Virus record (IMG/VR): IMGVR_UViG_3300034072_000926
Location: 41,621-105,620 of that record
DNA: 64,000 nucleotides
Direction: 5' to 3' (one strand)
Source of the DNA: a virus
Positions within the stretch are counted from its first letter, which is position 1, and every line of letters begins with the position of its first letter. The notes under the pieces were generated by a model. It searched no databases. It was not told the DNA's origin and was given only the letters and a program-made list of their open reading frames with translations. Below are positions 7,274 to 35,466 of this stretch, one piece after another. The position numbers and the translations under genes were made by a program.

Positions 7274-7302
7274 TTGACACTTTGGGTTCCTAAAACATAT
7301 TG
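7274..7302 (+). promoter_or_regulatory. possible sigma70-like promoter upstream of topo II large subunit
   Basis: TTGACA(7274-7279) with 17-nt spacer to CATATT; weak -10. Confidence 0.25.
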
Positions 7303-7326
7303 TCAAACAAAGAACAAGGGTTAACC

Positions 7327-9198
7327 ATGTCCAACAACATTAAGAAACTAACAGATTACCAACACGCTCGCTTGAGGACAGAGATGTATCTGGGTTCGAG
7401 GTCACTCCATACTCAGAACGTCCTGCAATTCGTAGATGGCAAGCCACAGCCTGTTGAGACATCTTGGGTGCCTGCATTATATACAGCATTCCGTGAAGTT
7501 CTCGACAACGCACTCGATGAAGTAGTGGGTCACGGCCACGGCAGTCGCATTGATGTCACATATGATCCTAAGACTCGCGAGGTCAGTGTTCAGGACGATG
7601 GTCGTGGTATCCCTATCGCTTATGATGAATCGCATAAGTGTCACCTCGCAACGCTGGTTATGACTGAAGCTCGTGCTGGTCGTAACTTTGAAGAGCGCGG
7701 CGAAGTCGCGGGAACTAACGGTATCGGTGCATCGGTTGTGAACTTCTGCTCCGAATTTTTCCGTCTTGACATCCATAAGGATGGCGAAAGGTTCCAGCAG
7801 GAATTCACACAGGGTAATGCAGTCTTTGGTGACGAACTACAGGTCGGAAAGCCGAAGATTGTAAAGAAGCAGAATAAGAACGGAACAAAGATCACGTTCA
7901 AGCTGAGCGATGAAGTCTTCCCTGACTTGACTCTCCCTGAGGAGTTCATTCGTTCGCGCGTAACTGAGGTTGCAATCTGCAATCCATTGATCAAGATCTT
8001 CTACAATGGAGAACAGGTCAAGGTCAAGCCGCGACCTGAACAGAGCCTCTTCCCTGGCTTGAAGCCAATGGCCCTAGAAGTGAAGGAAGATACCTTCCGT
8101 AGCCGCTTCTGGATTGTGCCCAATTGGGTCAAGGACGGCGAGCATGTTCATACGATTGTTAACAATATTCCTGCCTTTAACGGCGGTGTTCACATTGATA
8201 TTTTCCGTCGTCTCTTTTATGGCAACCTGATCACGGCTCTAGAGAAGGAAAGCAAGCGTCGCAAGCTGACTCCTAACCGCTCAGATGTTACTGAAGGTGT
8301 TCTGATCTACAACATCACGAACATGAGGGCTCCGAACTTCGATAGTCAGTCCAAGACACGACTGATCAATGAAGAAGTTGGTAAGATCATCAAAAGCCAG
8401 CTAGAAGATCCTGAACTCTACAAGGAGTTCATTAAGAAGAACCGAGAGTGGATTGAGGAAATCTACAAGCGTTGTGCAGAACGCACAATGAAGAAAGACC
8501 TCGGTGATCTCGCGAAGGCTGCAAAGAAGAATCTCCGCACCAAGGTTCCTGGACTGATGGATGCTATTGCGACTGATCGCACATCTTGCATTCTCTTCCT
8601 CGCAGAAGGTGACTCGGCAATTTCGGGTATGAGCTCTGTTCGTAATCCTGAAATCCATGGTGGTCTTGCGCTTTCGGGTAAGGTGCTCAACGTCAATGGC
8701 GAAATGCCTAAGAAGGTCGTCGAGAACAAGGCTCTCGGTGAGATCATGAGCAGCATTGGTTTGGTCGTTGGACAGAAGGCCCATCGCGGTGCTCTGCGCT
8801 ATGGCCAGGTATATGTCGCACATGACATGGATCCCGACGGTCTAAACATCGGTGCGCTTCTGATCAACTTCTTCCACACTTACTGGCCTGAGTTGTTTGC
8901 TGATCCAAAGAACCCGTTTGTTCATATCTTCCGCACCCCGTTCATCATTGCTGAAAAGGGTAAAGCTCGCAAATACTGGTATGCTCATAACTACCAGGAC
9001 TTCAAGCCAGAAGATTACAGCGGTTGGTCGATCACCCGTGCAAAGGGTCTCGGAACTCTCACCCGTGCCGATTGGGAATACTCTCTGAAGAACCCAGAAG
9101 TCTACCCAATTGTGGATGATGGCAAGATGGGTGAGACTTTGGACCTGATCTTCAACGGCAAGCGTTCGGACGATCGCAAGACCTGGATTGGCCTATAA
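7327..9198 (+). CDS. DNA topoisomerase II large subunit (T4 gp39+gp60 fused type, GyrB-like)
   Basis: GHKL ATPase N-terminus (NALDEV, GHGHG, DDGRGIP), TOPRIM (LFLAEGDSA, DMDPDG); probable ATG at 7327 with AAGGG RBS (track starts at TTG 7300). Confidence 0.88.
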   Translation: MSNNIKKLTDYQHARLRTEMYLGSRSLHTQNVLQFVDGKPQPVETSWVPALYTAFREVLDNALDEVVGHGHGSRIDVTYDPKTREVSVQDDGRGIPIAYDESHKCHLATLVMTEARAGRNFEERGEVAGTNGIGASVVNFCSEFFRLDIHKDGERFQQEFTQGNAVFGDELQVGKPKIVKKQNKNGTKITFKLSDEVFPDLTLPEEFIRSRVTEVAICNPLIKIFYNGEQVKVKPRPEQSLFPGLKPMALEVKEDTFRSRFWIVPNWVKDGEHVHTIVNNIPAFNGGVHIDIFRRLFYGNLITALEKESKRRKLTPNRSDVTEGVLIYNITNMRAPNFDSQSKTRLINEEVGKIIKSQLEDPELYKEFIKKNREWIEEIYKRCAERTMKKDLGDLAKAAKKNLRTKVPGLMDAIATDRTSCILFLAEGDSAISGMSSVRNPEIHGGLALSGKVLNVNGEMPKKVVENKALGEIMSSIGLVVGQKAHRGALRYGQVYVAHDMDPDGLNIGALLINFFHTYWPELFADPKNPFVHIFRTPFIIAEKGKARKYWYAHNYQDFKPEDYSGWSITRAKGLGTLTRADWEYSLKNPEVYPIVDDGKMGETLDLIFNGKRSDDRKTWIGL

Positions 9199-9530
9199 TG
9201 ACAGATAACTCTCAGATTAGTCCAGATACTTTCTGGAAAGACGAAGAGGGCATCGAGGAACATTACTGTAATGTCTATGTGGCAATTGACAAGGTCAAGA
9301 GCTCGACCGTTTGGTATGAAGACCTCGACGATAACGTCATCGAATGGCTGAATACAAACGCCGGCAATCGGAGAGCCCACGGTCTTGAATGGTATCAGAA
9401 TCTCGAGTTAGACCGATATGATTGGTCGGTTCGAGGCACTGTCAGGTATAAGGGACAGAGCTGTATCCAGATCTTGATCAAGGATAAGCGAGCTGCAATG
9501 ATGTTCAAGCTGTCATGGGGCGGTTTGTGA
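9198..9530 (+). CDS. FKLxWGG-tail paralog family member
   Basis: 110 aa; C-terminus RAAMMFKLSWGGL; TAATG stop/start overlap with topo II gene. Confidence 0.6.
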   Translation: MTDNSQISPDTFWKDEEGIEEHYCNVYVAIDKVKSSTVWYEDLDDNVIEWLNTNAGNRRAHGLEWYQNLELDRYDWSVRGTVRYKGQSCIQILIKDKRAAMMFKLSWGGL

Positions 9531-9778
9531 ACGTTCAGTGTCGTAACTTCATAAAGAGTAACGATGGTAACAAATTTCTCGGGTGTGTCACAACTGATGC
9601 ACCCGAGACGTTCAAGCTTTGGCTCGCAATGGCTTGTCCTACAAGCCAGCAAGTTCTTATATTTGAACGCAATGATGGAGCCATACGAGAAGAGGGCGGC
9701 TATCGTTGGAGGCTCAATATCGTCCTGAATGATCGGAAAGAAGCCCTTATGTTCAAGCTTCGTTGGTATGGCGCATGA
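9515..9778 (+). CDS. FKLxWGG-tail paralog family member
   Basis: 87 aa; C-terminus EALMFKLRWYGA; overlaps previous stop (ATG 9515 or GTG overlapping TGA). Confidence 0.55.
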   Translation: MGRFVNVQCRNFIKSNDGNKFLGCVTTDAPETFKLWLAMACPTSQQVLIFERNDGAIREEGGYRWRLNIVLNDRKEALMFKLRWYGA

Positions 9779-10047
9779 GCTTCTCTAACTGGTATGCTGT
9801 CTGGTATGAGCCAGAACCCGATGACATTATGGCCTACATCTCTATGGAGAAAATTGCCGTCATAGGCGGTGCCGAAAACAATGGAACCTATGAGGCTTTC
9901 CAGATCAATCAGGGTAATGCCATCCTGTCTAAGTGGTGTAGAGTAAATTGCAAATCGCCGGGCAAACCTGTAAATGTGCGTGGTGAACCTGCGTGGGCCT
10001 TTAAGGACGCCCAAGATGCTTTGCTGTTCAAACTAACTTGGGGTTAA
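9763..10047 (+). CDS. FKLxWGG-tail paralog family member
   Basis: 94 aa; C-terminus DALLFKLTWG. Confidence 0.55.
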   Translation: MVWRMSFSNWYAVWYEPEPDDIMAYISMEKIAVIGGAENNGTYEAFQINQGNAILSKWCRVNCKSPGKPVNVRGEPAWAFKDAQDALLFKLTWG

Positions 10048-10048
10048 G

Positions 10049-10453
10049 ATGTACCACGGCAACAAACAATTCGACCTAGAGACAACAGCTAAATTCTGGC
10101 TACTTCAGATTCGTGGCATTCGTATCAGCTATTATGGCAAGGAAGGCTATTCTGCGATCGATTGGTGTACGGCAAATGTAAAGGGTCATTGGGGTTGGAA
10201 CCATGAACCTGAACTGATCAAAAATAGTGATATCGTTAAGAACATTGACTATCATTTCACTGGCATCTGGCCCAAGGCCGAAGAAGATGATGAAACCAGA
10301 ATGATGAACGCTATGGCTCGTCAATTACAGCAAGACATAGATGATGAAATTTTAGAGAAACTCGGGGTAAAGAGGATTCGTCCCTCAGGTTATTTCTGGT
10401 TCGATAACAATGACGACGCAATGCTGTTCAAGCTGACCTGGGGTGGTGAATGA
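10049..10453 (+). CDS. FKLxWGG-tail paralog family member
   Basis: 134 aa; C-terminus DAMLFKLTWGGE; starts 1 nt after previous stop. Confidence 0.6.
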   Translation: MYHGNKQFDLETTAKFWLLQIRGIRISYYGKEGYSAIDWCTANVKGHWGWNHEPELIKNSDIVKNIDYHFTGIWPKAEEDDETRMMNAMARQLQQDIDDEILEKLGVKRIRPSGYFWFDNNDDAMLFKLTWGGE

Positions 10454-10740
10454 AGGATTACGATTTCGTCACAGTTTATCTCCCCTATGTTGGTGCAGTT
10501 GCCCGTGGAGAGTATAGCCACTTGATCTCTGAGGAAGTGGTTGCATGGCTCAATGAACACGTAGGCAACGGCACCGTTTCATATCGTCACTGGTTGCTCA
10601 ACTACGACAATGACACCTACCAGTGGACCTATAAGGGAACTGATTACTCCTCTGAATCTCATCATACAAAGATAGTCAGAGCATTCTGCTTCAAAGACAT
10701 AGACAAAGCCAGCCTATTCAAATTGGTATGGGGTGGATAA
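10450..10740 (+). CDS. FKLxWGG-tail paralog family member
   Basis: 96 aa; C-terminus KASLFKLVWGG; ATGA overlap with previous gene. Confidence 0.6.
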   Translation: MKDYDFVTVYLPYVGAVARGEYSHLISEEVVAWLNEHVGNGTVSYRHWLLNYDNDTYQWTYKGTDYSSESHHTKIVRAFCFKDIDKASLFKLVWGG

Positions 10741-11186
10741 GTAGATTTATGCAATCTACTCGTGCCAAATATCTAACAGAATATCGTGCTTTACGAAATG
10801 CAATTCACCGTTGTCATAACAGCAAGAATAAGCAATATAAAGACTATGGCGGACGAGGTATAACCGTCTTTGATGAATGGCATACTGATTTTGACGCATT
10901 TATAAAACATATAGGACCTAAGCCTAGTCCTGATTTGACCTTAGAACGTATAGATAATGATAAGGGATATGAGCCTAATAATGTTACATGGGCGACTAGG
11001 TCTGAGCAGCAATACAACAGAAGATCACATAGTTCAGCGGCCCGAATTACAATCAACGGGCAATCTTATACCTTGAATGAATGGTCAAAGATAAGTGGAA
11101 TAAATGCCACTACTTTACGATCAAGATTAAATAAAGGTGTAAGCCAATCTGAATTACTAAATCCAGTTGGTAAAACTGGAGTTTAG
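10728..11186 (+). CDS. HNH/AP2-type homing endonuclease-like protein
   Basis: YGGRGI motif, LERIDNDKGYEPNNVTWATRSEQ motif, C-terminal helix-turn-helix-like tail (NEWSKISGI..TLRSRL); start probably ATG 10749 just after previous stop. Confidence 0.55.
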   Translation: MGWISRFMQSTRAKYLTEYRALRNAIHRCHNSKNKQYKDYGGRGITVFDEWHTDFDAFIKHIGPKPSPDLTLERIDNDKGYEPNNVTWATRSEQQYNRRSHSSAARITINGQSYTLNEWSKISGINATTLRSRLNKGVSQSELLNPVGKTGV

Positions 11187-11187
11187 A

Positions 11188-11484
11188 ATGAAAGTAGCAT
11201 ATAACTTCCTACCTGATTACCAATTCCCTCATTGGATAGATCACAGCACAACACCTGCTAGTGACAACCTCACTCACTTCATGAATGTCAACGAATGGTG
11301 CGGCAAGCAATTCGGGGACCTTGGTGTGAATTGGGGTTATGAGCGCAAGACTGATACCTCATCTGCGCCGAACGGGATGAACCCTGTCAGGGTGCGTCTG
11401 CATTATACCACAATTCATTACAGCTGGCGTTTCAAGAACAAGGAAGATGCTGCTTTGTTCAAACTCACGTGGGGTGGCGCGTGA
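11188..11484 (+). CDS. FKLxWGG-tail paralog family member
   Basis: C-terminus DAALFKLTWGGA; ATG 11188 preceded by GGAG, TAGAATG junction with endonuclease gene (track start 11167). Confidence 0.55.
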   Translation: MKVAYNFLPDYQFPHWIDHSTTPASDNLTHFMNVNEWCGKQFGDLGVNWGYERKTDTSSAPNGMNPVRVRLHYTTIHYSWRFKNKEDAALFKLTWGGA

Positions 11485-11783
11485 AGCTTACAGAATACGA
11501 AACAGTCTCGATCTATGTTCCAGAGAGTCGACGACTAGGCTCGGGTAGCGGACAGAGCTTTAAGCTCAACCCTGACCTTATTGAATGGGCTGATATGATG
11601 TACGGCTACAAGGCTCCCGACATGACTTACTTCGTTGCCAACCTTGACAATGATGCTTATGGTTGGGCGCATGGTGGTATGGCAGCTAGTCCTAATCCTC
11701 TCGATAATCGCCTCTATCGCAAGTTCATGTTCAAGAAGGAATCTGATGCCTTGATGTTCAAATTGACATGGGGTGGCAATTGA
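11481..11783 (+). CDS. FKLxWGG-tail paralog family member
   Basis: C-terminus DALMFKLTWGGN; GTG start overlapping TGA of previous (GTGA). Confidence 0.55.
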   Translation: MKLTEYETVSIYVPESRRLGSGSGQSFKLNPDLIEWADMMYGYKAPDMTYFVANLDNDAYGWAHGGMAASPNPLDNRLYRKFMFKKESDALMFKLTWGGN

Positions 11784-12064
11784 GTGGATATCAGATCAGG
11801 TTCAATATCGAGGACATCTACGAGATTCAAGAACATTTCGGCTTAACGTGGGAATGTCTGACCGTCGGAATGCGTCGAGAGCATGAAAAGGAATGGATAT
11901 TAAATCTCACCAGAGTTATTGACGCGTTAACTCAATGGTGTAAGGATAACGGTATAAGGCAATACTGGTTTGGCTACACTCAGATCGAATTGTGCGTAAC
12001 CTTTCAAGAGAAGAAGGACGCGATGCTATTCAAGTTGAGGTGGCATAATGGTAAGAGAAGTTGA
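11768..12064 (+). CDS. FKLxWGG-tail paralog family member (divergent tail)
   Basis: 98 aa; C-terminus DAMLFKLRWHNGKRS. Confidence 0.5.
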   Translation: MGWQLSGYQIRFNIEDIYEIQEHFGLTWECLTVGMRREHEKEWILNLTRVIDALTQWCKDNGIRQYWFGYTQIELCVTFQEKKDAMLFKLRWHNGKRS

Positions 12065-12251
12065 GACAGGATATGTGGGATTCAACCCACCAGTCTATCA
12101 CAAGTCTGATCGGTATTATCGAATTTGGGAGATCATTGACGAAATGAATCTCCGTCGTACGGTTGCCTTCATGTATCAAGGCAATATGGAATTGGTAGGG
12201 CTAGGCTTCCCTACGAAACAAGAAGCAATGATTTTCAGGTTGAAACTATAA
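12048..12251 (+). CDS. small protein, degenerate family tail
   Basis: 67 aa; C-terminus EAMIFRLKL; overlaps neighbours. Confidence 0.4.
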   Translation: MVREVETGYVGFNPPVYHKSDRYYRIWEIIDEMNLRRTVAFMYQGNMELVGLGFPTKQEAMIFRLKL

Positions 12252-12502
12252 TGGGAACAGTTCACAGAAACGGCATACCGCCCAAGCGTCTTCCTTTCAA
12301 GAAGGTCCAAACCTATTCCGATATGGAGTTCAATGAAGAACTCATCACGAAATGGGCAAGGGAACAACTGGAGAACCACATGCAATATGACATCGTGGTC
12401 TTCAATGGCACGAAAGGGAAGCTCAACCGTTCTATTGAGTTCACAGCCTGGTTTCAGACTAAGATTGATGCTGAACGCTTCCAGAAGAAATGGATGAAGT
12501 GA
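12251..12502 (+). CDS. small protein, weak family tail
   Basis: 83 aa; C-terminus DAERFQKKWMK; TAATG overlap. Confidence 0.4.
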   Translation: MGTVHRNGIPPKRLPFKKVQTYSDMEFNEELITKWAREQLENHMQYDIVVFNGTKGKLNRSIEFTAWFQTKIDAERFQKKWMK

Positions 12503-12795
12503 ACAATCAGATCTACATTGTTGATCGCGTGGATCAGGTCAAGTGGTATATCGACGAAGAGACTGCGATGACCTTCTGTCTACAGATGGATAAGAATCAT
12601 CGAGTCATCCGAAACTGGCTAATGGAAATGACCTCCAACACCGTGGTCATAAGTGGTCAGGGCGTCATGCCTCGTATGGGATCGAGTGATCATCCCAACA
12701 ATGTCTACCAATCCATTTCCCGTGACCAATTCAAACTCTATTTCGCAGACGCAGACGATGCAATGCTGTTCAAACTAACTTGGGGTGGCGAATGA
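12490..12795 (+). CDS. FKLxWGG-tail paralog family member
   Basis: 101 aa; C-terminus DAMLFKLTWGGE. Confidence 0.6.
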   Translation: MDEVNNQIYIVDRVDQVKWYIDEETAMTFCLQMDKNHRVIRNWLMEMTSNTVVISGQGVMPRMGSSDHPNNVYQSISRDQFKLYFADADDAMLFKLTWGGE

Positions 12796-12974
12796 CCACG
12801 TGCAAACTCTACAAGGCTTATCTCCTTAGCGATCGTGTCGAGGGTCCTAATATTCTGACTTTCTATGCCTACCACATGAGTGAGAAAGCAGCCAAGCAGG
12901 CTGCTATTCGTTGGGCTCAAGGTCAACATCCTGGCGCAAGCATCACCCTCGATAAAGTTGACTTGCTCTCATAA
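12792..12974 (+). CDS. small hypothetical protein (no family tail)
   Basis: ATGA overlap with previous gene; 60 aa; lacks the motif. Confidence 0.35.
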   Translation: MTTCKLYKAYLLSDRVEGPNILTFYAYHMSEKAAKQAAIRWAQGQHPGASITLDKVDLLS

Positions 12975-12991
12975 CTCACTATTATGGGCTT

Positions 12992-13348
12992 ATGAAAATA
13001 AGCTTCTGTCCTTGGCGTTCCCTGTCGCACCCTTACAGGGTCCAGTGGGGCTCTGTCTATGATTTAGTAACGCAGCAAAGCTCTGGTCCTAGAAGTTCTG
13101 AGGACTTCGCTCTGCGCGCCGCATGGGTTATTCGTTCTGAGGTTCTCAAATACATCGAAGAGTTACCTGATAGGAAATTCTTGTTCTTCTTTAAGATCAA
13201 GCCTATGGCGGCTGTGGCTTGTCAAGAGGCACGGTATATCGCAGGTCGTGCTGGACGAGTAACAGCCTTCCCTATACCTAAGCCTTTAATGTTCGCTCGC
13301 AAGAGTGACATTATGATGTTTAAGCTTCGTTTCGGCGGTCGTCTGTAA
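12992..13348 (+). CDS. FKLxWGG-tail paralog family member (divergent)
   Basis: 118 aa; C-terminus DIMMFKLRFGGRL. Confidence 0.5.
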   Translation: MKISFCPWRSLSHPYRVQWGSVYDLVTQQSSGPRSSEDFALRAAWVIRSEVLKYIEELPDRKFLFFFKIKPMAAVACQEARYIAGRAGRVTAFPIPKPLMFARKSDIMMFKLRFGGRL

Positions 13349-13713
13349 TGGAATTGTCTGCTAGGGGATTACCGTCGCTTCGCATTACTCAGGGATACCA
13401 TGTCGTGATTCGTGCCCCTGATTATCCAGGCTTACTTCCGCATCAAGAACGTTTCAAACATGGGTTCACAAATGAACTCAAAGATTGGCTCTTAGAGCAT
13501 GTGGGTCAACCTGCGACAAATCTCACATGGGAAAATGGCGAGGGCGATTGGATTCATACTGGCTGCCGTCAAGGCAAAGTAGAATGGGTTAATGCCCATA
13601 CCCCTTCGGTCATCAACAGCATGGACTTCTATTTTAGAGACCGGCGTCGAGCGAGACGTTTCAAGATAGTCTGGGAACGCTATTTTGAGATAGCACTGGG
13701 ACCTTTCACCTAA
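13348..13713 (+). CDS. small protein, degenerate family tail
   Basis: 121 aa; RRARRFKIVWERY near C-terminus; TAATG overlap; shares the W...W..G spacing of the family. Confidence 0.45.
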   Translation: MELSARGLPSLRITQGYHVVIRAPDYPGLLPHQERFKHGFTNELKDWLLEHVGQPATNLTWENGEGDWIHTGCRQGKVEWVNAHTPSVINSMDFYFRDRRRARRFKIVWERYFEIALGPFT

Positions 13714-13717
13714 ATTA

Positions 13718-13747
13718 TTGACGCGCTTCTGGTGTGCTAAGTAAAAT
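13718..13747 (+). promoter_or_regulatory. possible sigma70-like promoter for gp52-like gene
   Basis: TTGACG(13718-13723), 18-nt spacer, TAAAAT(13742-13747). Confidence 0.35.
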
Positions 13748-13771
13748 GCACATAGAAATCAGAGGCCATCA

Positions 13772-19704: not shown

Positions 19705-20076
19705 ATGCGTGGGCTCACTCCTGACGAACGTGAGATGTGGTCGAAAGTAACCAAGGACGTCACACCCCTTGGTTCTACCCCTATGAGCCCCGTAGAGCAG
19801 TCAATCGTGCTTCCAGCAACCACACCGCGCGCAAAACCTTTCCGACCCGTATTGGACTTGCATGGGCTTACTTTGCACGATGCTTATAATCGTTCAGTTT
19901 CCCATATCGCTAATGCGGCCGGAAAGTATCGCTATGTGGTCATTATTACTGGCTTGAGCGGGCAGATCAGAGAAGAGTTTCCTAAGTGGTTCTCTAATCA
20001 CGCACTCGTGAGATCGATTAACTCACTACGAGGCGGAGGAGCCTGGGAAGTATGGCTGAAGAAAAGAGATACGTAG
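19705..20076 (+). CDS. Smr domain protein
   Basis: LDLHGLTLHDA...YVVIITGLSG...RGGGAWEVWL matches Smr (MutS2 C-terminal) signature. Confidence 0.65.
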   Translation: MRGLTPDEREMWSKVTKDVTPLGSTPMSPVEQSIVLPATTPRAKPFRPVLDLHGLTLHDAYNRSVSHIANAAGKYRYVVIITGLSGQIREEFPKWFSNHALVRSINSLRGGGAWEVWLKKRDT

Positions 20077-20321
20077 ACGCTGATGCATTGATCAATAGTC
20101 TACGCAATATACCCAATCCTGGTTACAACACACCTTATTCAAGTGGCGCCCTAGATAGTCAGGTCAATACCCTGATTAGTCAGGCCATGTCTATGGCCTT
20201 CTCGGTATTCATTACCCAACTCGAGAATGCTATTTCGACGACTGCGAGGCCCTATACCCAGTGTATGCTTTGCACTCGCAAGCCACATGACCCGGATCCA
20301 TTTGCTCCAGACGGTCGTTAA
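20052..20321 (+). CDS. hypothetical small protein
   Basis: 89 aa ORF overlapping neighbours; weak. Confidence 0.25.
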   Translation: MAEEKRYVDADALINSLRNIPNPGYNTPYSSGALDSQVNTLISQAMSMAFSVFITQLENAISTTARPYTQCMLCTRKPHDPDPFAPDGR

Positions 20322-20683
20322 ATCCTGATCTCAATATCTCCACCGAAATCTTTAATATCCTTGGCAATTTCCATGCCATATTCGGTGGAGAAATATCCTT
20401 CAGTGCGAAACGCACCATCACTCTCGCCGCGCCAGAACGACTTGTAGCCAAGCAAGTCAATTGCGATGAGCCGCTTGAGTTCCTCAACCTTGAACCCCTT
20501 GCAGAGCTGAGACACTTCGCCCCTGGTCAGATACAAGTCATCAGGAGTTTCTGCCGATAGCTTCTTCATGATCAGCTTCGTGTGGAAAGCCTTGAGGAAA
20601 TTATAGGCCGGGCTGTCTTCGGTAATGACAGCGTAGCTCTTGCCGTCAATGACTTCGATATCATACATAAGGTCTTGCCTCAC
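20318..20683 (-). CDS. hypothetical protein (121 aa)
   Basis: ORF track; no family tail. Confidence 0.4.
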   Translation of the reverse strand: MRQDLMYDIEVIDGKSYAVITEDSPAYNFLKAFHTKLIMKKLSAETPDDLYLTRGEVSQLCKGFKVEELKRLIAIDLLGYKSFWRGESDGAFRTEGYFSTEYGMEIAKDIKDFGGDIEIRI

Positions 20684-20954
20684 AGATTAGATCGTCGTAC
20701 CAGGTCAGTTTCGCAAGCACCGCGTCCTTGGGATTCTTGAACGAGATGTTTCGACCGCTTTTCATATCATCGATGCTATATAGATCAGTGGTATGGTTGT
20801 TCAACCATATTGTTTCCTGCATAGACGGCGAACGATTCAGACCCAATTGGGTCTTGAAACGCAGGTTGCGCTTGCGATGAGGATGACGAAACACCTTGAG
20901 CTTGATGGCATCCTGGCGAGTCATTTTCTTCACGATGTCACTGAGCTTCTTCAT
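20661..20954 (-). CDS. FKLxWGG-tail family member (divergent tail)
   Basis: 97 aa; C-terminal region DAVLAKLTWYDD. Confidence 0.45.
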   Translation of the reverse strand: MKKLSDIVKKMTRQDAIKLKVFRHPHRKRNLRFKTQLGLNRSPSMQETIWLNNHTTDLYSIDDMKSGRNISFKNPKDAVLAKLTWYDDLICEARPYV

Positions 20955-21178
20955 CTTCCACCAAAGGTCAGCTTGAACAACATTGCAGTCTTATGATCCT
21001 TGAATGTCCAGTCCACCCAACAGTGGGTCTGATCATTACAAGCCTTGAACGAGTAGTCATGCCATACTGACAGACCCTTACCAAGCATCCAATGAGCACA
21101 TTCGGGAAAGGCATCAACGACATTACTGCCGATGGGATAGCCGTCCTTGAGCTTAGAGGTCCGAACAGTGACGGTCAT
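20951..21178 (-). CDS. FKLxWGG-tail paralog family member
   Basis: 75 aa; C-terminus TAMLFKLTFGGR; 4-nt overlaps both sides. Confidence 0.55.
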   Translation of the reverse strand: MTVTVRTSKLKDGYPIGSNVVDAFPECAHWMLGKGLSVWHDYSFKACNDQTHCWVDWTFKDHKTAMLFKLTFGGR

Positions 21179-21462
21179 TTTCCGCCGAACCGCAACTTGA
21201 ACAAAGCCGCGAGATCCTTGCTTGGGAAATAGAACTTAGTGACTTCGTATTCACCGTTCTCTGTCGAGCAGGACATATCGAATCCGTGGGCATCGCACCA
21301 ATCAACAACTTCAGGCCCAACCTTGTAGTTGAATGTGTCTCCATATTTGCCACAGGGAACCTTGATCAGGTACGGACGAATATCGAAGACTAGTTCAAAC
21401 TTTCCTTGCCGCTCCTTTTTAAGATTGGCAAGGAAAGCCTCGACTTGCTCTCTGGAAGCCAT
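21175..21462 (-). CDS. FKLxWGG-tail paralog family member
   Basis: C-terminus LAALFKLRFGGK; likely ATG at 21462 forming TAATG with CCA-enzyme stop (track start 21516). Confidence 0.55.
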   Translation of the reverse strand: MASREQVEAFLANLKKERQGKFELVFDIRPYLIKVPCGKYGDTFNYKVGPEVVDWCDAHGFDMSCSTENGEYEVTKFYFPSKDLAALFKLRFGGK

Positions 21463-22616
21463 TATTCGACCTCCAGCAGTTCTTCCTTGGTCTTCGTCCA
21501 GCGACTGAACGTCCAAGCCTGCTTCATCCGATTCAGCTTCTGACCCATTTCCGGACCGGGCTTCATGCCCATATCCAGCAAGTCCTTACCACGAACCGGG
21601 AAGGTCGGGATCTCGAAGTTGCGAGCATAATCGGCCAGCAACGTCTCGCCCTGCACTTCTGCAAAGCTCACGACATGATCCCGAGGGAACTCGTCCCGAG
21701 TCAGCATCACTTCGATCCGCTGTTCGTCCAGGAACACGCCGCGGTTGCGGATCATGTTCCGAACCTTTGCCTCTTCCGGCGAGCTCATCTTCCAGAACTT
21801 GAAGAACTTCTCTTCATCAGTGCTGGCGACCAGCGTAGCCAGTGCGGCCAGCGCATCATCGGCACGGGTCAGTTCAGCGGGGTTGAAGCGGAAGATGCCC
21901 AGTGCCCGATTGACCTGAGTCTTGAAGATCGCGTCCACGATCCGCGTCCGACCCGGCATCTTGGGATCCAGCAGCTTCTGCATTTCCAGCCAGAACCGCT
22001 CAACGCTTACGACGTTCAGCTTGTCCAGAACTTCACCCTCAGCGAAGATATCCAGCGTGTCCTGATCCATCGAAGCATCGAATCGTGCTGCGAAGCGGAA
22101 GTAGCGCAGGATACGCAGGTAGTCCTCTTCAACGCGCTTGCGCGCATCGCCGACGAACCGAACGACCTTGGCTTCCAGATCCGCCCGACCATTGAAGTAG
22201 TCGAAGACTTCGCCCTTCATGTCCATCGACATTGCGTTGATGGTCAGGTCGCGCCGTTCTGCATCGACTTCGAAGCTGCGAGTGAATTCCACCGTTGCAT
22301 GACGACCGTCAGTCTCAGTGTCGATCCGCAGCGTGGTGACTTCGAAGGGTTCGCCATCAACGACCAGCGTAGCCGTGCCGTGCTGGATACCGGTCGGGAT
22401 AAAACCGAACTTGTTGATCTCTGCGATGATCTTCATTTCGTCCGGCGTTGCATCGGTTGCGAAGTCGATATCCTTGGGTTCCACACCCAGCAGCGCATCA
22501 CGAACACAGCCGCCGACGAACCGGACCTCATGACCCGCCATATCGAAGGCTTTCATCAGCTTCTTCGTCTTCGGGGTCATCAGTTTGTCCAGCATGTCGA
22601 TCTCCTTGTTGTTCAT
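21462..22616 (-). CDS. cca: CCA-adding tRNA nucleotidyltransferase
   Basis: 384 aa; FVGGCVRDALLG...DIDFAT head-domain motifs of class II CCA/poly(A) polymerase family. Confidence 0.85.
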   Translation of the reverse strand: MNNKEIDMLDKLMTPKTKKLMKAFDMAGHEVRFVGGCVRDALLGVEPKDIDFATDATPDEMKIIAEINKFGFIPTGIQHGTATLVVDGEPFEVTTLRIDTETDGRHATVEFTRSFEVDAERRDLTINAMSMDMKGEVFDYFNGRADLEAKVVRFVGDARKRVEEDYLRILRYFRFAARFDASMDQDTLDIFAEGEVLDKLNVVSVERFWLEMQKLLDPKMPGRTRIVDAIFKTQVNRALGIFRFNPAELTRADDALAALATLVASTDEEKFFKFWKMSSPEEAKVRNMIRNRGVFLDEQRIEVMLTRDEFPRDHVVSFAEVQGETLLADYARNFEIPTFPVRGKDLLDMGMKPGPEMGQKLNRMKQAWTFSRWTKTKEELLEVE

Positions 22617-22639
22617 GTAACGCTTCTAGCATGAACAGG

Positions 22640-22885
22640 TTAGGAGTCAACCGATATTATTTCTGTATTCCATGACAATTTTGCTAACATTGCGGTTTCT
22701 TTTGAAACTACTAAATGCCAAACAGCCGGCCCAGGCCACATTTCATGCTGGATTTTAACTCTTTCCAAACCCTTACTTCGAGAAGCATTTTCAATATCAA
22801 ATTGCCATTCGGGTTCGTATCTGTCTAACCATTCTAATAATTCTTCAGTTTGGTTCGGCATTGCTTCTATGTAGAGATGGATCAT
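22640..22885 (-). CDS. FKLxWGG-tail family member (divergent tail)
   Basis: 81 aa; C-terminal TAMLAKLSWNTE. Confidence 0.45.
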   Translation of the reverse strand: MIHLYIEAMPNQTEELLEWLDRYEPEWQFDIENASRSKGLERVKIQHEMWPGPAVWHLVVSKETAMLAKLSWNTEIISVDS

Positions 22886-23667
22886 ACCAGATCCTTCGGA
22901 TCTACTGAACTATTTGCGATCTTCGCAAGACGCCGGTCTTCAATGACCTGCCAGCGACGAGCCATTTCAGCACGAACCTCATCGACGGCTTGTTGCCATT
23001 CAGGCTTTACATAGAGCAAGACTGCGATCTTCCACATCAGCAGATTCTTAGCGTCTTTGCGCTTTTCCTTAACCTTGACCTTCTTCTCTTGAAGCCGGGC
23101 AGCTTTCATCTTGCAGTAGACGCGCCATGCCTCTGGATTCTGTCGCAGTTTCAGGAACTTGTTGAACTTCATGTCGCCGCGCAGGTTGTTGCACCCGCTA
23201 CAGGACATCACAACATTGCTCAGGTGATCCGTGCCGCCTTTGCCTTGACACACGATATGCTCAAGGGTTGCTCGACGATTATTGGAAATCGGAGTATCAC
23301 CGGGAAGCCAGGATTTCTGACCACAGAAGTAGCAGAGGCCGCCTTGAAGATGAAACATCTTAGTGGTCTTGCGACGACGAGCATTGGTGAACTTTGTGTA
23401 CCACTCCTCTTTCGCTTCAGGAGTCGTCCACTTTTTACGGACGGCGCGTCCGATTAGTTGAGTGTAGCTGATCCCACCCGAGAGCTTTCCAGGCTTTTTG
23501 CTTTGCACGACGGCAAAGTCGAACGGGAAAGACAATGGGCCAGAAGATCCAATAGTTCCAGTTGATGGAACCGCGGCGCTTGGGGCTGATTCCACACTTG
23601 ACGACGTATGGGATGAGCAAGATGAGACACAGGACGAATACGACGTTTTTGCCTCTGTCGCTACCAC
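22882..23667 (-). CDS. HNH endonuclease
   Basis: 261 aa; CYFCG...ATLEHIVCQGKGGTDHLSNVVMSCSGCNNLRG HNH/zinc motif; Ser-rich N-terminus. Confidence 0.7.
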   Translation of the reverse strand: MVATEAKTSYSSCVSSCSSHTSSSVESAPSAAVPSTGTIGSSGPLSFPFDFAVVQSKKPGKLSGGISYTQLIGRAVRKKWTTPEAKEEWYTKFTNARRRKTTKMFHLQGGLCYFCGQKSWLPGDTPISNNRRATLEHIVCQGKGGTDHLSNVVMSCSGCNNLRGDMKFNKFLKLRQNPEAWRVYCKMKAARLQEKKVKVKEKRKDAKNLLMWKIAVLLYVKPEWQQAVDEVRAEMARRWQVIEDRRLAKIANSSVDPKDLV

Positions 23668-23710
23668 CCGAAAACACTCCCATAACTACCTCCGTTGCTC
23701 ACCGCTTACG

Positions 23711-23932
23711 TTAGAGTCCGCCCCATGTCAACTTGAATAGTGACGCGATGTTAGGGTTGGCGAACATAAAATGGTGCTTGCCTTTGTGCGGTCCACAGTA
23801 GAGATAATCATGACGAATATTGAGGCCTTGCTCGTCAACCCAATCGATCAGGTCGGATATAGGGTGACTATCGCTGACTAGGATTTTGACCATATTTTCT
23901 AGTGGAATCAATACCGCCATTAGAAACCCCAA
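23711..23932 (-). CDS. FKLxWGG-tail paralog family member
   Basis: 73 aa; C-terminus ASLFKLTWGGL. Confidence 0.55.
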   Translation of the reverse strand: MGFLMAVLIPLENMVKILVSDSHPISDLIDWVDEQGLNIRHDYLYCGPHKGKHHFMFANPNIASLFKLTWGGL

Positions 23933-24615
23933 TTCTCACGTTCGTTCTCTTCCCTGAGGAGACGTTCGAGTTCATCATCCTCAAAATCGTCATCATCCTC
24001 GTTCAGACCTTCATGATCTGCGGTCTTACTGATCCACTTCTCTGCATCGAAGTCGTTGATCTCAAAGTCACGATACAGACCAACAACCCTGACATGATAG
24101 AATGTCGAATTCTCGAAACTCTCATAGGTGACCTGCTGGCAATAGAGGCCGAACGCTGCCAAACCCTGAGTCAGAGCAATCGAATCCATCATCTTCATGC
24201 CGACCCTAACATAAAAGTTGATGGTCAGATTGAATCCCGGTCCGTTGACCTCTTCTTCCGAATAGCCGTTGTGTCCATATGTGGTCGAGATGTTATCGTC
24301 AGCCATAACGCTTACGATCTCGGCCTTATAGAAATTGAGACCTGCTCGGTCCTTATCCAGTATGTTGAACGGACAGGCTTGGACCTCGAATGGCTTTTGA
24401 AGCCATGCCTCAAGTTCATCCAGACTATGGAAGTTCTGAACGTCTTGGCGAATAGGCAAATATTGCCTGATTGCAAGACGCAATGACCGATAATCCTGAG
24501 CACGTTTGCCCCAGGACCCATTGATCAGAACAGTCATGTTGTCGAGCAGGCTATTGTAATAGTTCCGCCACATTCGTAGCGGATACTGCTCGTTTGTGAC
24601 TAGGCTGCGTTTCAT
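23920..24615 (-). CDS. hypothetical protein with acidic C-terminus (231 aa)
   Basis: ORF track. Confidence 0.45.
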   Translation of the reverse strand: MKRSLVTNEQYPLRMWRNYYNSLLDNMTVLINGSWGKRAQDYRSLRLAIRQYLPIRQDVQNFHSLDELEAWLQKPFEVQACPFNILDKDRAGLNFYKAEIVSVMADDNISTTYGHNGYSEEEVNGPGFNLTINFYVRVGMKMMDSIALTQGLAAFGLYCQQVTYESFENSTFYHVRVVGLYRDFEINDFDAEKWISKTADHEGLNEDDDDFEDDELERLLREENERENWGF

Positions 24616-25736
24616 CGCACTTCCTTGATCCGATTCATTAACGTGGACTTCTTGCCCTTATATTCGTCATGCTTCTTGACAGTGCCCCTGATCCGAACAC
24701 GCTTACCTTCCTTGCCACGGAATACTGGCTTAGTGGCGAACCACTTGTAGACATTGCCAGAGTGATCATGGAAGCTATGGAGGAAGCATGTATCGAGAGT
24801 CCGAACATTGTCCACGATGACTTCCACTTCAAGCTTCTGATCGATCACGCCTTGGAATTCACTGCTCAGGGGTCCAGTGCGATTGCGCGAATAATACACG
24901 CCTACGATCGAGGCCGCGATGCCAATGCTCCGTTCCTCGAGTGCTTCGCTGTTGGCGACTACATGGCAGTTGTGCTCATAGTCAGAGAGTTCGCCCTCGA
25001 GTCCCCGTGCCCAGTCAAGAGCAGCGTTTGCGAGGTTCCGTGCTGCGCTGGAGGCCAGAGGAAGCTGGCGGCTCATTGAGCCCCATACGCGATCTGAGGT
25101 GCTCTGATATCCAGTCTCACGAGCAACCCGGCGACTCACGAAGCCATTTTCCAGGATGCTTGATGCACAGAGGGTCATGAAGTCCTCAGTATCGATCCAG
25201 CGATAATCCCGAAGCGAAGAGGAGTCGAAATTGCGAACACCACGTGCAAATTCGCCGATACTGGCGACCAGTTCAGCCATCTTGGCCCATTTGTCTGCGT
25301 CTCCGTGACCGAGGAAGTCCTTGAGGCACGAACTGCCAACTTGCTTGAAGCCATGATCTTCATGGAAGACCACGAACGTATCACGCCGACGACGCTTGTG
25401 ACCGCAATGGTCACAGGATGGATCACTGTGGCGATATTCCTCTGGGAGATCGCGAAGACCAGTGGTGCGGACGATATTGCCAGTCTCATTGCCGTGGTCG
25501 ATTCGTGCCACAAACTCCCAGCCGTCCAGCTTGGGTTCGGGGAAGGCAACGAAGACCTCGTTGATACGATGTCCGTAGAATTTGGATTGTTTGTTCTCTT
25601 CCTTGTGGAAGCCCACAACAGTGAGGAAGAGCCGCTCGCCGGTCAGACGCTTTGCGCGCTTGGCGAGAGTCTCGAGCTTGGCCTTAAACCATTCGAAGCC
25701 GTCTGCGGGAATTTCGTAAGTTTTGCCTTCAGCCAC
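24612..25736 (-). CDS. hypothetical protein (374 aa) with CxxC..HxxH cluster
   Basis: ORF track; CDHCGHKRRRR motif. Confidence 0.5.
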   Translation of the reverse strand: MAEGKTYEIPADGFEWFKAKLETLAKRAKRLTGERLFLTVVGFHKEENKQSKFYGHRINEVFVAFPEPKLDGWEFVARIDHGNETGNIVRTTGLRDLPEEYRHSDPSCDHCGHKRRRRDTFVVFHEDHGFKQVGSSCLKDFLGHGDADKWAKMAELVASIGEFARGVRNFDSSSLRDYRWIDTEDFMTLCASSILENGFVSRRVARETGYQSTSDRVWGSMSRQLPLASSAARNLANAALDWARGLEGELSDYEHNCHVVANSEALEERSIGIAASIVGVYYSRNRTGPLSSEFQGVIDQKLEVEVIVDNVRTLDTCFLHSFHDHSGNVYKWFATKPVFRGKEGKRVRIRGTVKKHDEYKGKKSTLMNRIKEVR

Positions 25737-33571: not shown

Positions 33572-33871
33572 TTATTCTTTTGGTGGGAGAGCGTCTGCTA
33601 GTCTAGCAAGAACCTGGCCATGGCAAGGCGAGGGATGACACCAGCATCCAAGCTTCTTGCCCTTTAATTCATGGAGTGCAGCCATAAGGGTTGGCTGTTC
33701 AACGATCCAATCGGCAAATTGCTGGATAACTTCTTCACGGGTGCCATCACGACCAACGATAAATGGATTGCCCCACTTAGTCTTACGGTCAATGCGAACG
33801 TCAAAGTGATCCACCTTGAGGTTGACCACTGTGGTTGAGGGCGGGGGCCAGGAAAAGAGTTCGTCTGCCAT
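33572..33871 (-). CDS. DUF4326-like protein
   Basis: 99 aa; KWGNPF and LGCWCHP.PCHG motifs. Confidence 0.5.
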   Translation of the reverse strand: MADELFSWPPPSTTVVNLKVDHFDVRIDRKTKWGNPFIVGRDGTREEVIQQFADWIVEQPTLMAALHELKGKKLGCWCHPSPCHGQVLARLADALPPKE

Positions 33872-34500: not shown

Positions 34501-35019
34501 CTAGAAACTGAGTTTCGCCAGCATAACCTGATCGACCGTCCCCTTGTCGAGGATCATTGCACTCGCTGGTTTGCCGACACGGACAAGATCCGTTGCGGTA
34601 TTGCCTTGGGCACTCTTGAAGAGCTTTGCGTAGATAGTGCCCTTGTCACTGATCTTCTTCACAGTGCCCATTACCATATCCACTCGGGCACCTTCTGTGC
34701 CGCGCGGGAAGATAATCGTATGACCAATCTCGATGGTGCGACCCATGAGATCATTGAAGCGGGGTGTCTCAGGATCTTCGGCAAAATGAGTGCCGCCCTT
34801 CCAATTCGGAAGGTGTTCTAGCTCGCTGCCTTTGATCCAGAATCCTCGACGCGTTCCGACGGCCAATTGATAATCATGCGCGCTGTAATATTTGGACCGG
34901 ACACTCATGACGCGTCCGACGGTGCCTTCTCGAAGGCCAGCAATAACCCGCACGAATTGCGGACCATCTTCCATACTAGCAATAAGGGACATCGCTGCCT
35001 GGTAGTTATTGAGATTCAT
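34501..35019 (-). CDS. hypothetical protein (172 aa), C-terminus VMLAKLSF
   Basis: ORF track; the C-terminus faintly resembles the paralog family tail. Confidence 0.45.
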   Translation of the reverse strand: MNLNNYQAAMSLIASMEDGPQFVRVIAGLREGTVGRVMSVRSKYYSAHDYQLAVGTRRGFWIKGSELEHLPNWKGGTHFAEDPETPRFNDLMGRTIEIGHTIIFPRGTEGARVDMVMGTVKKISDKGTIYAKLFKSAQGNTATDLVRVGKPASAMILDKGTVDQVMLAKLSF

Positions 35020-35274: not shown

Positions 35275-35466
35275 TCAGTCCAGCAAATCTTCATCAAACT
35301 GAAGTCGGAAACGAAAAGCCTCATCAATTCCCGAGAAGCTGAGTTCGAGAGAGTCGTCATCTGCGTTAACGATTGCGCTCTGATCGACATGCTCATCCGC
35401 AAGCCACTTTACAACCTTATCCTTAGATGCGGCATCCACCCACAACGTCCATGTGCTTGCGACCAT
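35275..35466 (-). CDS. small acidic hypothetical protein
   Basis: 63 aa. Confidence 0.3.
   Translation of the reverse strand: MVASTWTLWVDAASKDKVVKWLADEHVDQSAIVNADDDSLELSFSGIDEAFRFRLQFDEDLLD

Follow-up and report, generated by a model that had tools for sequence, protein, structure and literature searches.

Our results indicate that four of five small minus-strand open reading frames (ORFs) are very probably genes of an uncurated, essentially phage-borne family of small-domain proteins, which is organized in tandem arrays and for which a ferredoxin-like fold is predicted; the fifth is a probable divergent member. Tentatively, we propose that the paralogs could be diversified, early small intracellular binding proteins that serve in host takeover or counter-defence. 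Taking the family, its fold, its arrays and the binding-protein proposal together, this is the best overall explanation of the data, and we assign to it a probability of roughly 0.6. The window, that is, the whole stretch of viral DNA that was analyzed, comprises 64,000 nucleotides.

Five minus-strand ORFs with a common C-terminal motif

Reading the sequence directly, we found five minus-strand ORFs at the positions, and with the end peptides, that the initial annotation had given. Each is named below by its first coordinate.

20661..20954, minus strand: family member, 97 aa, tail KDAVLAKLTWYDD, then a 9-residue extension
20951..21178, minus strand: family member, 75 aa, tail KTAMLFKLTFGGR
21175..21462, minus strand: family member, 95 aa, tail DLAALFKLRFGGK; a TAATG overlap joins its start to the stop of the CCA-adding enzyme gene
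22640..22885, minus strand: probable divergent member, 81 aa, tail ETAMLAKLSWNTEIISVDS, with a C-terminal extension
23711..23920, minus strand: family member, 69 aa, tail NIASLFKLTWGGL; start at the ATG at 23920

For ORF 23711, the stop and the tail ASLFKLTWGGL stood as described, but the start, which had been placed at a TTG at 23932, is likelier to be the ATG at 23920, given the TAATG overlap with the upstream gene and the predictions of public gene callers; the member is identical to P0010, which these callers give as 69 aa. The motif A-x-[LM]-F-K-L-x-[WF] is carried near the stop by all five ORFs, with A replacing F before K in 20661 and 22640, which also have extensions of 9-12 residues past the tail. 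All five have a tryptophan in the predicted helix α1 (LIDWVD, AHWMLG, VVDWCD, LLEWLD, TIWLNN), and four a phenylalanine in strand β3, the corresponding residue in 22640 being valine.

The tail is conserved as protein sequence

Matches to the regular expression [LMIVF][AFLVIM]KL[TSRK][WFY] were counted in the 717 window ORFs of at least 40 aa and in 500 residue shuffles. The window yielded 15 matches, every one within 12 residues of the stop, and the shuffled ORFs gave on average 0.6 matches (maximum 4), or 0.10 (maximum 2) near an end; this control (15 versus a mean of 0.6) rules out a chance motif. The codons of the tail differ synonymously (TTCAAGCTG, TTCAAACTA, TTCAAATTG, TTCAAGTTG and others), so it is the protein that is conserved and there is no DNA repeat, which rules out such a repeat as the origin of the tail.

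It might still be argued that the tail is conserved for a role of the DNA: the segment could be a junction at which recombination or duplication takes place, or it could supply the following gene with its ribosome-binding site and start. Of 71 tails of the form WGGx-stop, 55 have the next start embedded in NTGA, preceded by GGNGG at a distance of 4-5 nt; the C-terminus of the family is bimodal, lying 1 or 3 residues beyond the tryptophan, and for several of the downstream ORFs a start with 'MGW' inside TWGG can be read. All this fits a DNA role, and in the W-G-G-x-stop tails the Gly-Gly codons (GGNGG) may indeed double as the Shine-Dalgarno sequence of the overlapping next gene. Such a role could explain the optional G-G-x extension only, and as an account of the whole tail it is highly improbable: the D-A-x-L-F-K-L-x-W core shows synonymous codon variation, dN/dS between orthologs is far below 1, and the tail also occurs in single copy or internally, as in the first domains of two-domain proteins and in the L021 and L033 genes.

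Homology extends beyond the tail

A profile built solely from sequences outside the window detected four of the five ORFs, with E values from 2e-11 to 1e-6, which supports the claim of paralogy between the minus-strand ORFs and the family on the plus strand (for 22640, this is only probable). ORF 21175 was found at E 2e-11, 23711 at 3e-11, 20951 at 1.4e-8 (1e-10 over its full length in iteration 2; hhalign 97%), and 20661 at 1e-6 (3e-9 in iteration 2; hhalign 96%, the alignment spanning the α1 tryptophan to the tail). In pairwise comparisons, 20661 is 48% identical over 46 aa to a sequence of contig L017 (8932-9234), and 20951 and the 23711 member share 32% identity along 65 aa (E 8e-6). ORF 22640 is probably a family member as well; it reached E 0.079 with the external profile and 0.024 in iteration 2, where it aligned from α1 to the tail, its hhalign probability of 75% applies to 18 tail residues only, and it is 30% identical over 67 aa to the member at 9198 (E 0.009). 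As a lone query against 5.8 billion proteins, it matched only itself.

The outcome was mixed when the tail was removed. A tail-less profile from the plus-strand members of the window linked none of the five minus-strand ORFs to them (E 4-9), whereas a tail-less profile from 86 outside sequences matched 21175 (E 1.3e-6) and 23711 (E 3e-3) and left 20951, 20661 and 22640 unmatched (E of 1 or more). With the tail kept, the alignments of 20661, 20951, 21175 and 23711 reach back to the α1 tryptophan.

The unlinked strands in the within-window search, the three ORFs with nothing significant once the tail is removed, and the restriction of the hhalign match of 22640 to the tail are what one would expect if otherwise unrelated small proteins had only a short C-terminal motif in common, by convergence or chance. 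We find this scarcely credible, and for four ORFs it is largely refuted. Among 257 external members, the α1 tryptophan is conserved in 98%, a tryptophan in β2 in 79% and the β3 phenylalanine in 91%, and most of 981 database matches span α1 to α2. The two tail-less external matches and the 65-aa alignment between 20951 and 23711 argue against convergence too, as does the AlphaFold2 (AF2) prediction, in which the tail would lie within a compact domain.

Plus-strand array and number of copies

The plus-strand members form an array between two topoisomerase II genes.

7300-9198, plus strand: topoisomerase II large subunit gene, flanking the array
9198..13713, plus strand: array of 13 family members between the large and medium subunit genes
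10728-11186: non-family ORF, 152 aa, interrupting the array
13772-15127, plus strand: topoisomerase II medium subunit gene, flanking the array
35275..35466, minus strand: possible degenerate member, 63 aa, tail DEAFRFRLQF

Fourteen window ORFs were detected by the external profile at E<1e-5 and five more (12992, 12251, 12048, 22640 and 35275) more weakly, which bears out the earlier estimate of about 19 copies per 64 kb at two loci and on both strands. ORF 35275 matched the window plus-strand profile at E 0.008 and the external profile at 0.003 (HMM positions 25-79), with no match to the iteration-2 profile. A further distant relative had been suspected at 34501..35019 on the minus strand. Its product does end in VMLAKLSF, but it matched in none of the profile searches (hhalign probability 1.2%), has no profile similarity to the family beyond six C-terminal residues, and matches PHROG 2251; the suggestion was therefore abandoned.

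Neighbouring genes of the minus-strand ORFs

The interleaving of the five ORFs with genes for a CCA-adding enzyme and an HNH endonuclease was confirmed by Pfam matches to both.

21462..22616, minus strand: CCA-adding enzyme/tRNA nucleotidyltransferase (PF01743, E 1.4e-33; PF13735, E 1.8e-6), not a family member
22882..23667, minus strand: HNH endonuclease (PF01844, E 6e-5; PF14279, E 1e-5), interrupting the array
25834-25804, minus strand: terminator with a 14-bp stem, from a consensus scan, standing before the promoter
25791-25764, minus strand: sigma-70-like promoter TTGACT-16-TG-TATGAT, from a consensus scan, preceding the gene block 25736 to 20318

At the junctions read from the sequence, the described 4-nt and TAATG overlaps with neighbours, including the CCA-adding enzyme gene, are present: ATGA at 20951/20954, 21175/21178, 22882/22885 and 24612/24615, and TAATG at 21462 (stop of the CCA-adding enzyme gene and start of the 21175 member) and 23920. 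The stop junction of 20661 reads ATGTATGA. The CCA-adding enzyme gene is a conserved anchor of the minus-strand array site, being syntenic in Phosso, Atu_ph07 and a 416-kb contig. The HNH gene is likely a mobile insertion; in Phosso, a related HNH gene is located at another place, and the array beside the nucleotidyltransferase gene is uninterrupted. The block from 25736 to 20318, in which genes overlap continuously, holds the five ORFs and would be driven by the promoter at 25791-25764; consensus promoter matches are not enriched in the region (3 found versus 8.3 expected).

Distribution and evolution of the family

In metagenomes, the family numbers 981 representatives (clusters at 50% identity). 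It is new to protein-family resources and never described: Pfam, PHROGs and NCBIfam gave nothing credible for the window members or for 87 family representatives, the members found in databases are all named 'hypothetical protein', the papers on Atu_ph07 and AP-J-162 and that of Iyer et al. do not mention the family, and a full-text literature search on the motif returned irrelevant papers only. Against deposited phages, megablast with positions 20000-25000 gave no match, and tblastn with single members (the 23711 member, P0016) gave nothing or noise at E of 1 or more; related loci were located by a scan with a back-translated tail pattern. One match, the 876-aa repeat protein P0015, was rejected, as it covers the α1 segment only and looks like an unrelated helical repeat.

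Arrays reach 34 genes in 13 kb, and the analyzed parts of the 416-kb contig carry at least 44 family genes. The paralog investment is large, as had been pointed out, yet typical of this group of phages, other contigs having 17-34 copies per array. Both array sites, one between the topoisomerase II genes and the other between the Smr and CCA-adding enzyme genes, are kept in Phosso-like jumbo phages, and the number of copies between the topoisomerase genes is 0, 4 or 13 in related jumbo phages. For the plus-strand members, L029, L027 and L016 have orthologs (45-82% identical) at matching positions and in unchanged order, and paralogs kept as orthologs are under purifying selection (dN/dS 0.08-0.25). 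The best paralogs of 20951, 21175 and 23711 are one another, which rules out a recent block duplication from the plus-strand array to the minus strand. These mutual best paralogs, the positional orthologs and the presence of both sites in Phosso and the 416-kb contig indicate that the loci are old and have grown by local duplication. Genes within the tandem arrays are translationally coupled, and the arrays occupy fixed places between conserved core genes. From one related jumbo phage to another, arrays grow or shrink, with single paralogs persisting as orthologs, and two-domain family proteins exist in which the first tail is internal.

Jumbo phage genomes consist mostly of genes of unknown function, and here about 19 genes in 64 kb encode a single domain that has no model in family resources. 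A family profile would annotate many ORFs currently counted as unique, and would mark hyperplastic sites. For AP-J-162, 304 unique ORFs were reported in the corresponding paper, some of which may belong to the family.

Predicted fold

The protein is predicted to consist of a single small domain with a core of about 55 residues, arranged β1-α1-β2-β3-α2 in a ferredoxin-like two-layer sandwich from which β4 is usually absent. Structure prediction covered two of the five ORFs: AF2 gave b1-a1-b2-b3-a2 for the 23711 member (pLDDT 82, pTM 0.65), and b1-a1-[low-confidence insert]-b3-a2-b4 for 22640 (pLDDT 71.5), a model biased by the family alignment used as input. In these predictions the tail D-A-x-L-F-K-L-x-W corresponds to helix α2, and the residue pattern suggests that this helix probably forms a hydrophobic core with the α1 tryptophan, the tryptophan at the start of β2 and the β3 phenylalanine. 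Most of the circumference of the helix is hydrophobic, with one lysine conserved in 93%, and the helix is far more conserved than the remaining domain; the C-terminus lies almost always 1-3 residues beyond it. Variable parts are the N-terminal extension, the stretch from α1 to β3 and the net charge; positions outside the core hold less than 0.5 bit each, and pI ranges from 4.7 to 10.3 (family median 6.4), many members being strongly acidic.

Foldseek searches against PDB and BFVD gave no match at E<1e-3, all BFVD hits were uncharacterized phage proteins, and a sequence-profile search of PDB returned noise. A Gly-Gly tail of the ubiquitin-like or MoaD/ThiS type was rejected, since the predicted fold is ferredoxin-like and not β-grasp, and G-G is followed by one more residue; the second glycine position is occupied in 47% of members.

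Possible functions

In the proposal that we tentatively favour, the paralogs would be small binding proteins of the cytoplasm, expressed early under host-type promoters; a conserved scaffold would present a variable surface and each paralog would bind a different host or defence target, so that an array would constitute an arsenal for host takeover or counter-defence. Since the arrays can be deleted and the proteins are small and soluble, they offer a tractable target for learning what use huge phages make of their surplus coding capacity.

Several observations count against binding proteins of this kind. None of the homologs found carries a functional annotation, the argument for early expression is one consensus promoter match of a class that is not enriched (3 versus 8.3), and an arms race would not be expected to leave orthologs under purifying selection. 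The hydrophobic tail helix and its lysine fit a shared interface, for oligomerization or a common partner, at least equally well.

It is a rather unlikely possibility that the C-terminal helix is such a shared interface, by which the small domains assemble mutually or dock on one hub, for example a host machine or a phage-encoded one such as ClpX. If true, the arrays would encode combinatorial modular adaptors and not independent effectors, which would represent a new kind of phage apparatus for host manipulation or counter-defence.

That the members are small RNA or DNA binders with an RRM- or KH-like ferredoxin-like sheet, modulating tRNA, mRNA or translation, is unlikely. The CCA-adding enzyme, a phage IF3 and tRNA genes nearby are in keeping with this idea, but none of 87 members matched Pfam RRM or KH models, the RNP1 and RNP2 consensus motifs that go with an RRM match were likewise not found, the wide pI range with its many strongly acidic members speaks against it, and the tRNA connection does not hold generally, the other array site being between topoisomerase genes.

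Small-molecule binders resembling ACT or PII domains, for example oligomeric sponges for immune signalling nucleotides or metabolites, are quite unlikely. The family is unrelated in sequence to the ACT and PII families; structural scores are at the generic level of a very common fold, no PDB Foldseek match falls below E 0.1, there is no conserved polar or glycine-rich ligand loop (all non-core positions hold too little information), and a small number of ligands would hardly account for dozens of paralogs as divergent as these.

Very unlikely, finally, is a common docking or degradation signal by which the C-terminal helix would send the small domains to one machine, such as the phage ClpX.

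3468-4718: phage ClpX gene, in the window

The pronounced conservation of the helix so close to the C-terminus would suit a signal, and in relatives the ClpX and ClpS genes lie close to this locus as well, but this adjacency merely reflects the shared synteny of the genome region. Against a signal, the helix is packed into the domain in the AF2 prediction and would not be free, and proteins with two domains carry the first tail internally. Degrons of the ssrA type end in LAA, which the terminal residues of the family do not resemble.

Comparison with known systems

The closest structural comparison is with ACT/ferredoxin-like domains, such as the ACT domain of TyrA from Bacillus anthracis (PDB 5v0s/5uyy) and the AHAS small subunit IlvN. 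Sequence identity is 11-12%, neither the window members nor the 87 representatives match the Pfam ACT clan, and the Foldseek similarity is not significant. Most family members are predicted to be without the final β4, one being predicted in the extension of 22640, and conservation of a ligand loop is absent. ACT domains are regulatory modules of enzymes, whereas the family consists of stand-alone phage proteins in tandem arrays.

T4-like phages contain hyperplastic regions, that is, clusters of small non-essential early genes between core genes, for example beside the topoisomerase gene 39, most of which are unrelated ORFans. The arrays resemble these regions in their position between conserved replication genes, their small overlapping ORFs, a host-type promoter, interspersed homing endonucleases and copy numbers that vary between relatives. 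They differ in that one homologous domain fills them, up to 34 times.

A lineage-specific expansion in a jumbo phage is known from Bacillus phage G, which has about 35 zinc-ribbon paralogs (Iyer et al. 2021, PMC7824862). In both cases, dozens of copies of one small domain are present per jumbo phage genome and function is at best guessed, but the fold and family are different, and the family described here occurs in many large phage contigs (981 clusters), at conserved syntenic sites with orthologs, and is thus not limited to one lineage.

True members at the same two sites are found in Sinorhizobium phage Phosso (PV764938; XYS97656-XYS97659, XYS97672) and related IMG/VR contigs, with tails such as DAMLFKLTWL, AALFRLTWL and DAMLFKLEF. 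Phosso carries 4 + 4 copies, compared with 13 + 5 here, and its tails usually stop one residue past the tryptophan instead of continuing with G-G-x.

Five minus-strand ORFs and their neighbours

The five minus-strand ORFs described in the initial annotation, named here by their lower window coordinates (20661, 20951, 21175, 22640 and 23711), are all present, and the C-terminal peptides quoted for them are exact. Only the start of 23711 has to be moved, most likely to the ATG at 23920, which yields a protein of 69 aa and is the start called in public assemblies. The tight overlaps reported with neighbouring genes, including the gene for the CCA-adding enzyme, were confirmed as ATGA or TAATG junctions, and the following were read directly from the sequence.

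24612/24615, minus strand: ATGA overlap
22882/22885, minus strand: ATGA overlap
21175/21178, minus strand: ATGA overlap
20951/20954, minus strand: ATGA overlap
23920, minus strand: TAATG overlap
21462, minus strand: TAATG overlap with the CCA-enzyme gene
After 20661, minus strand: ATGTATGA junction

The two genes said to be interleaved with these ORFs also kept their identities: the CCA-adding tRNA nucleotidyltransferase carries a PolyA_pol head domain (E = 1.4e-33) together with tRNA_NucTran2_2, and the HNH endonuclease was borne out in the Pfam search.

The shared C-terminal tail, D-A-x-L-F-K-L-x-W, is conserved as protein. Among 717 ORFs of at least 40 aa, a strict regular expression for the tail core found 15 matches, every one within 12 residues of the stop, as against a mean of 0.6 matches, 0.1 of them near an end, in residue-shuffled ORFs. 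Since the codons of the tail copies differ synonymously, a DNA repeat was rejected.

Membership beyond the tail

Whether the two strands are linked beyond this short tail, which the initial annotation had made decisive for a single family, depends on the profile used. With a profile of the plus-strand members in the window (array 9198-13713), tail included, four of the five minus-strand genes were found at E = 1.7e-6 to 1.1e-4 and 22640 at E = 0.46; with the tail cut off, none of the five was linked (E = 4-9). The external profile, an HMM built only from sequences outside the window, detected 21175 (E = 2e-11), 23711 (3e-11), 20951 (1.4e-8) and 20661 (1e-6) in alignments that reach back to the first helix, alpha1, and gave E = 0.079 for 22640. 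When the tail was removed from both this profile and its targets, 21175 (E = 1.3e-6) and 23711 (E = 3e-3) were still found, but 20951, 20661 and 22640 were not.

Comparison by hhalign gave 97% for 20951, 96% for 20661 and 75%, through the tail only, for 22640, and a second-iteration profile recovered 20951 over its full length (E = 1e-10), 20661 (E = 3e-9) and 22640 (E = 0.024, in an alignment that starts at alpha1 and runs through the tail). In BLAST, 23711 shares 32% identity with 20951 over 65 residues (E = 8e-6) and 31% with 21175 over 49 residues. On these profile and pairwise comparisons, we regard 20661, 20951, 21175 and 23711 as secure members and 22640 as a probable, divergent one, so that the grouping of all five ORFs as one family stands for four and is probable for the fifth. 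ORF 34501-35019, which had been suggested as a further distant relative, was rejected, as it had no match to the external profile and scored 1% in hhalign. Two genes adjoin it, and a third ORF lies nearby.

33572-33871, minus strand: DUF4326 protein
34151-34492, minus strand: stand-alone protein with a receiver domain of the response-regulator type, slightly short of the Pfam cut-off
35275-35466, minus strand: ORF of 63 aa ending in a degenerate tail (DEAFRFRLQF), matched by two profiles at E = 0.003-0.008

The last of these has the beta-alpha-beta-beta-alpha sequence pattern of the family and was not matched by the iteration-2 profile; it is a possible extra, degenerate member.

Family size, conservation and predicted structure

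Searched exhaustively with HMMER, a set of 1.84 billion cluster representatives yielded 981 proteins at E<=1e-3, mostly of 60-120 aa, and most matches span profile positions ~22-75, well past the tail. In an alignment of 87 diverse representatives, the Trp of the first helix and the Phe of the tail are invariant. Among 257 external members, conservation reaches 98% for the alpha1 Trp, 79% for the Trp at the start of beta2 and 91% for the beta3 Phe, and in the tail 96% for Ala, 97% for Phe, 93% for Lys, 93% for Leu and 85% for Trp; nearly all other positions carry less than 0.5 bit. Net charge differs widely, with some members strongly acidic and others strongly basic (pI 4.7-10.3). No fused known domain was found in any match, the only multi-domain forms being tandem duplications of the family's own domain, and no secretion or membrane signals were seen by eye in the sequences. 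Every match is named 'hypothetical protein' at its source. Because none of the 87 representatives matched a Pfam, PHROG or NCBIfam model or a PDB sequence, and papers on related isolates make no mention of it, the family appears to be undescribed. One metagenomic protein of 876 aa (P0015) matched the family profile at E = 5e-12 solely through an alpha1-like segment, FEDWCAQHGG, repeated many times; the protein is probably a helical repeat with no relation to the family, and it calls for care in profile searches.

AlphaFold2, given a family alignment of 26 sequences, predicted a compact and confident model for 23711 (pLDDT 82, pTM 0.65) with the order beta1-alpha1-beta2-beta3-alpha2, in which the conserved Trp lies in alpha1 and the tail forms alpha2. 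The model of 22640 has the same layout at lower confidence (pLDDT 71.5), with a disordered insert and a C-terminal extension that adds beta4, and is not independent evidence because the family alignment was used as input. Foldseek returned nothing below E = 1e-3 from the PDB or viral predicted structures; the viral matches above that value were all uncharacterized phage proteins, one of them from Agrobacterium phage Atu_ph07. Membership of the ACT, RRM and ubiquitin-like families was rejected, their defining sequence features having been tested for and not found.

In the tail helix (family HMM positions 72-79), six of the eight wheel positions are hydrophobic, and a 93%-conserved Lys lies between Phe and Leu. 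Judged from the alignment, this conservation exceeds the needs of a one-sided core helix. The helix might instead be a shared docking or oligomerisation element, with which its hydrophobic character around most of the circumference and the conserved Lys are consistent.

Array sites and their evolution

The phage of the window is a T4-related jumbo phage. In the topoisomerase II large subunit it shares 71% identity with Sinorhizobium phage Phosso (469 kb) and 61% with Atu_ph07 (490 kb); assembly GCA_902726455.1 and a 465-kb contig carry genes identical to those of the window. The following phage genes lie immediately upstream of the topoisomerase pair, and of these the IF3 and ClpX genes are syntenic with Phosso and Atu_ph07.

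2880-3410, minus strand: translation initiation factor IF3
3468-4718, minus strand: ClpX-type unfoldase with a zinc finger
6265-6687, minus strand: S-adenosylmethionine decarboxylase

Family arrays occupy two conserved sites, one between the genes for the topoisomerase II large and medium subunits and the other between the genes for Smr and the CCA enzyme. Phosso has four members at each site, and both sites of a 416-kb IMG/VR contig hold arrays, with at least 44 members in the pieces analysed. Atu_ph07 has no members in the syntenic 24.5 kb, where the topoisomerase genes abut. The topoisomerase II inter-gene site is an accordion-like hyperplastic site.

Copies at the topoisomerase II inter-gene site
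Atu_ph07 locus, 4513-4524: 0 copies
Phosso locus, 21866-22923: 4 copies
Window, 9198-13772: 13 copies

Other large viral contigs hold larger arrays (L030, 34 members in 13 kb; L011, 24; L025, 23; L019, 19; L008, 17). The back-translated tail pattern occurred in 26 stretches of IMG/VR versus one in bacterial and archaeal genomes (596 Gb), on a Novosphingobium contig in a region that resembles a prophage. Three contigs (L029, L027 and L016) carry positional orthologs of the plus-strand members in conserved order (45-82% identity). Between paralogs of the window, either identity is 28-33% or the tail alone is shared. For ortholog pairs with unsaturated dS, dN/dS is 0.08-0.25. It follows that the arrays are old, have grown by local duplication and vary in size between relatives, and that individual paralogs are kept under purifying selection. 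Nothing pointed to one locus having arisen from the other by block duplication; 34501 apart, the initial interpretation was largely right, with four members certain and one probable.

The plus-strand array is interrupted by a 152-aa non-family ORF (10728-11186, plus strand), the product of which resembles, by eye, a homing-endonuclease-type DNA-binding protein and matched nothing in Pfam at E<=0.01. A GIY-YIG endonuclease gene and two small genes near Smr (L003 5467-6324 and 14200-14707) are not shared between two near-identical assemblies of the phage (L003 and L004), which suggests that mobile endonucleases are still being gained and lost.

Expression signals and gene coupling

Two signals immediately precede the leading gene of a block that runs down to 20318, with its genes overlapping or almost touching.

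25834-25804, minus strand: terminator with a 14-bp stem, directly upstream of the promoter
25791-25764, minus strand: near-consensus sigma-70 promoter (TTGACT, 16-nt spacer, TG, TATGAT)

From this single consensus match we infer that the block may be transcribed early by the host polymerase.

Across the family, the protein ends one residue past the tail Trp in 69 cases and three residues past it in another 69. Among the 71 tails that read W-G-G-x-stop, the stop codon overlaps the following start codon as ATGA, GTGA or TTGA in 55, and most of the others sampled have TAATG. These overlaps place GGNGG 4-5 nt upstream of the next start (in the window, for example, at 21165-21190, 20941-20966 and 10440-10453). 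Given this spacing and the stop/start overlap, the Gly-Gly codons look as if they also supply the downstream gene with its Shine-Dalgarno sequence, which best explains the optional Gly-Gly-x extension. Longest-ORF starts reading 'MGW/MGR...' at 9515, 10728, 11469, 11768 and 12780 (plus strand) fall inside the T-W-G-G codons of the previous gene, where ACA TGG GGT GG in a shifted frame reads ATG GGG TGG; such starts may be artefacts, since an NTGA start a few codons further on is just as possible.

Proposed role and comparison with known systems

The family domain is small and stand-alone, anchored at a few conserved hydrophobic positions and free in sequence elsewhere, and its arrays are massive, translationally coupled and almost confined to phages, with paralogs retained gene by gene. 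We tentatively propose, at a probability of about 0.35, that the members are early intracellular binding proteins. They would be made early and act inside the cell as binders, a common scaffold presenting a paralog-specific surface, and the array would supply a set of effectors for host takeover or counter-defence. RNA binding, for which the RRM-like fold and the tRNA-related neighbour genes speak, is argued against by the spread of charge and the absence of RNP motifs. Small-molecule sponges of the ACT or PII type would share with the models a likeness at the fold level only.

As effectors or otherwise, the proteins form a large unannotated family that dominates both array loci, which matters for phage genomics. 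T4-like phages carry small accessory genes in hyperplastic regions between core genes, and the arrays of the window occupy a like niche. The family is new and very large; its genomic niche is of a known type. Jumbo phages also have lineage-specific expansions of small domains, such as the ~35 zinc ribbons of phage G (PMC7824862), an expansion of the same kind as that in the window.
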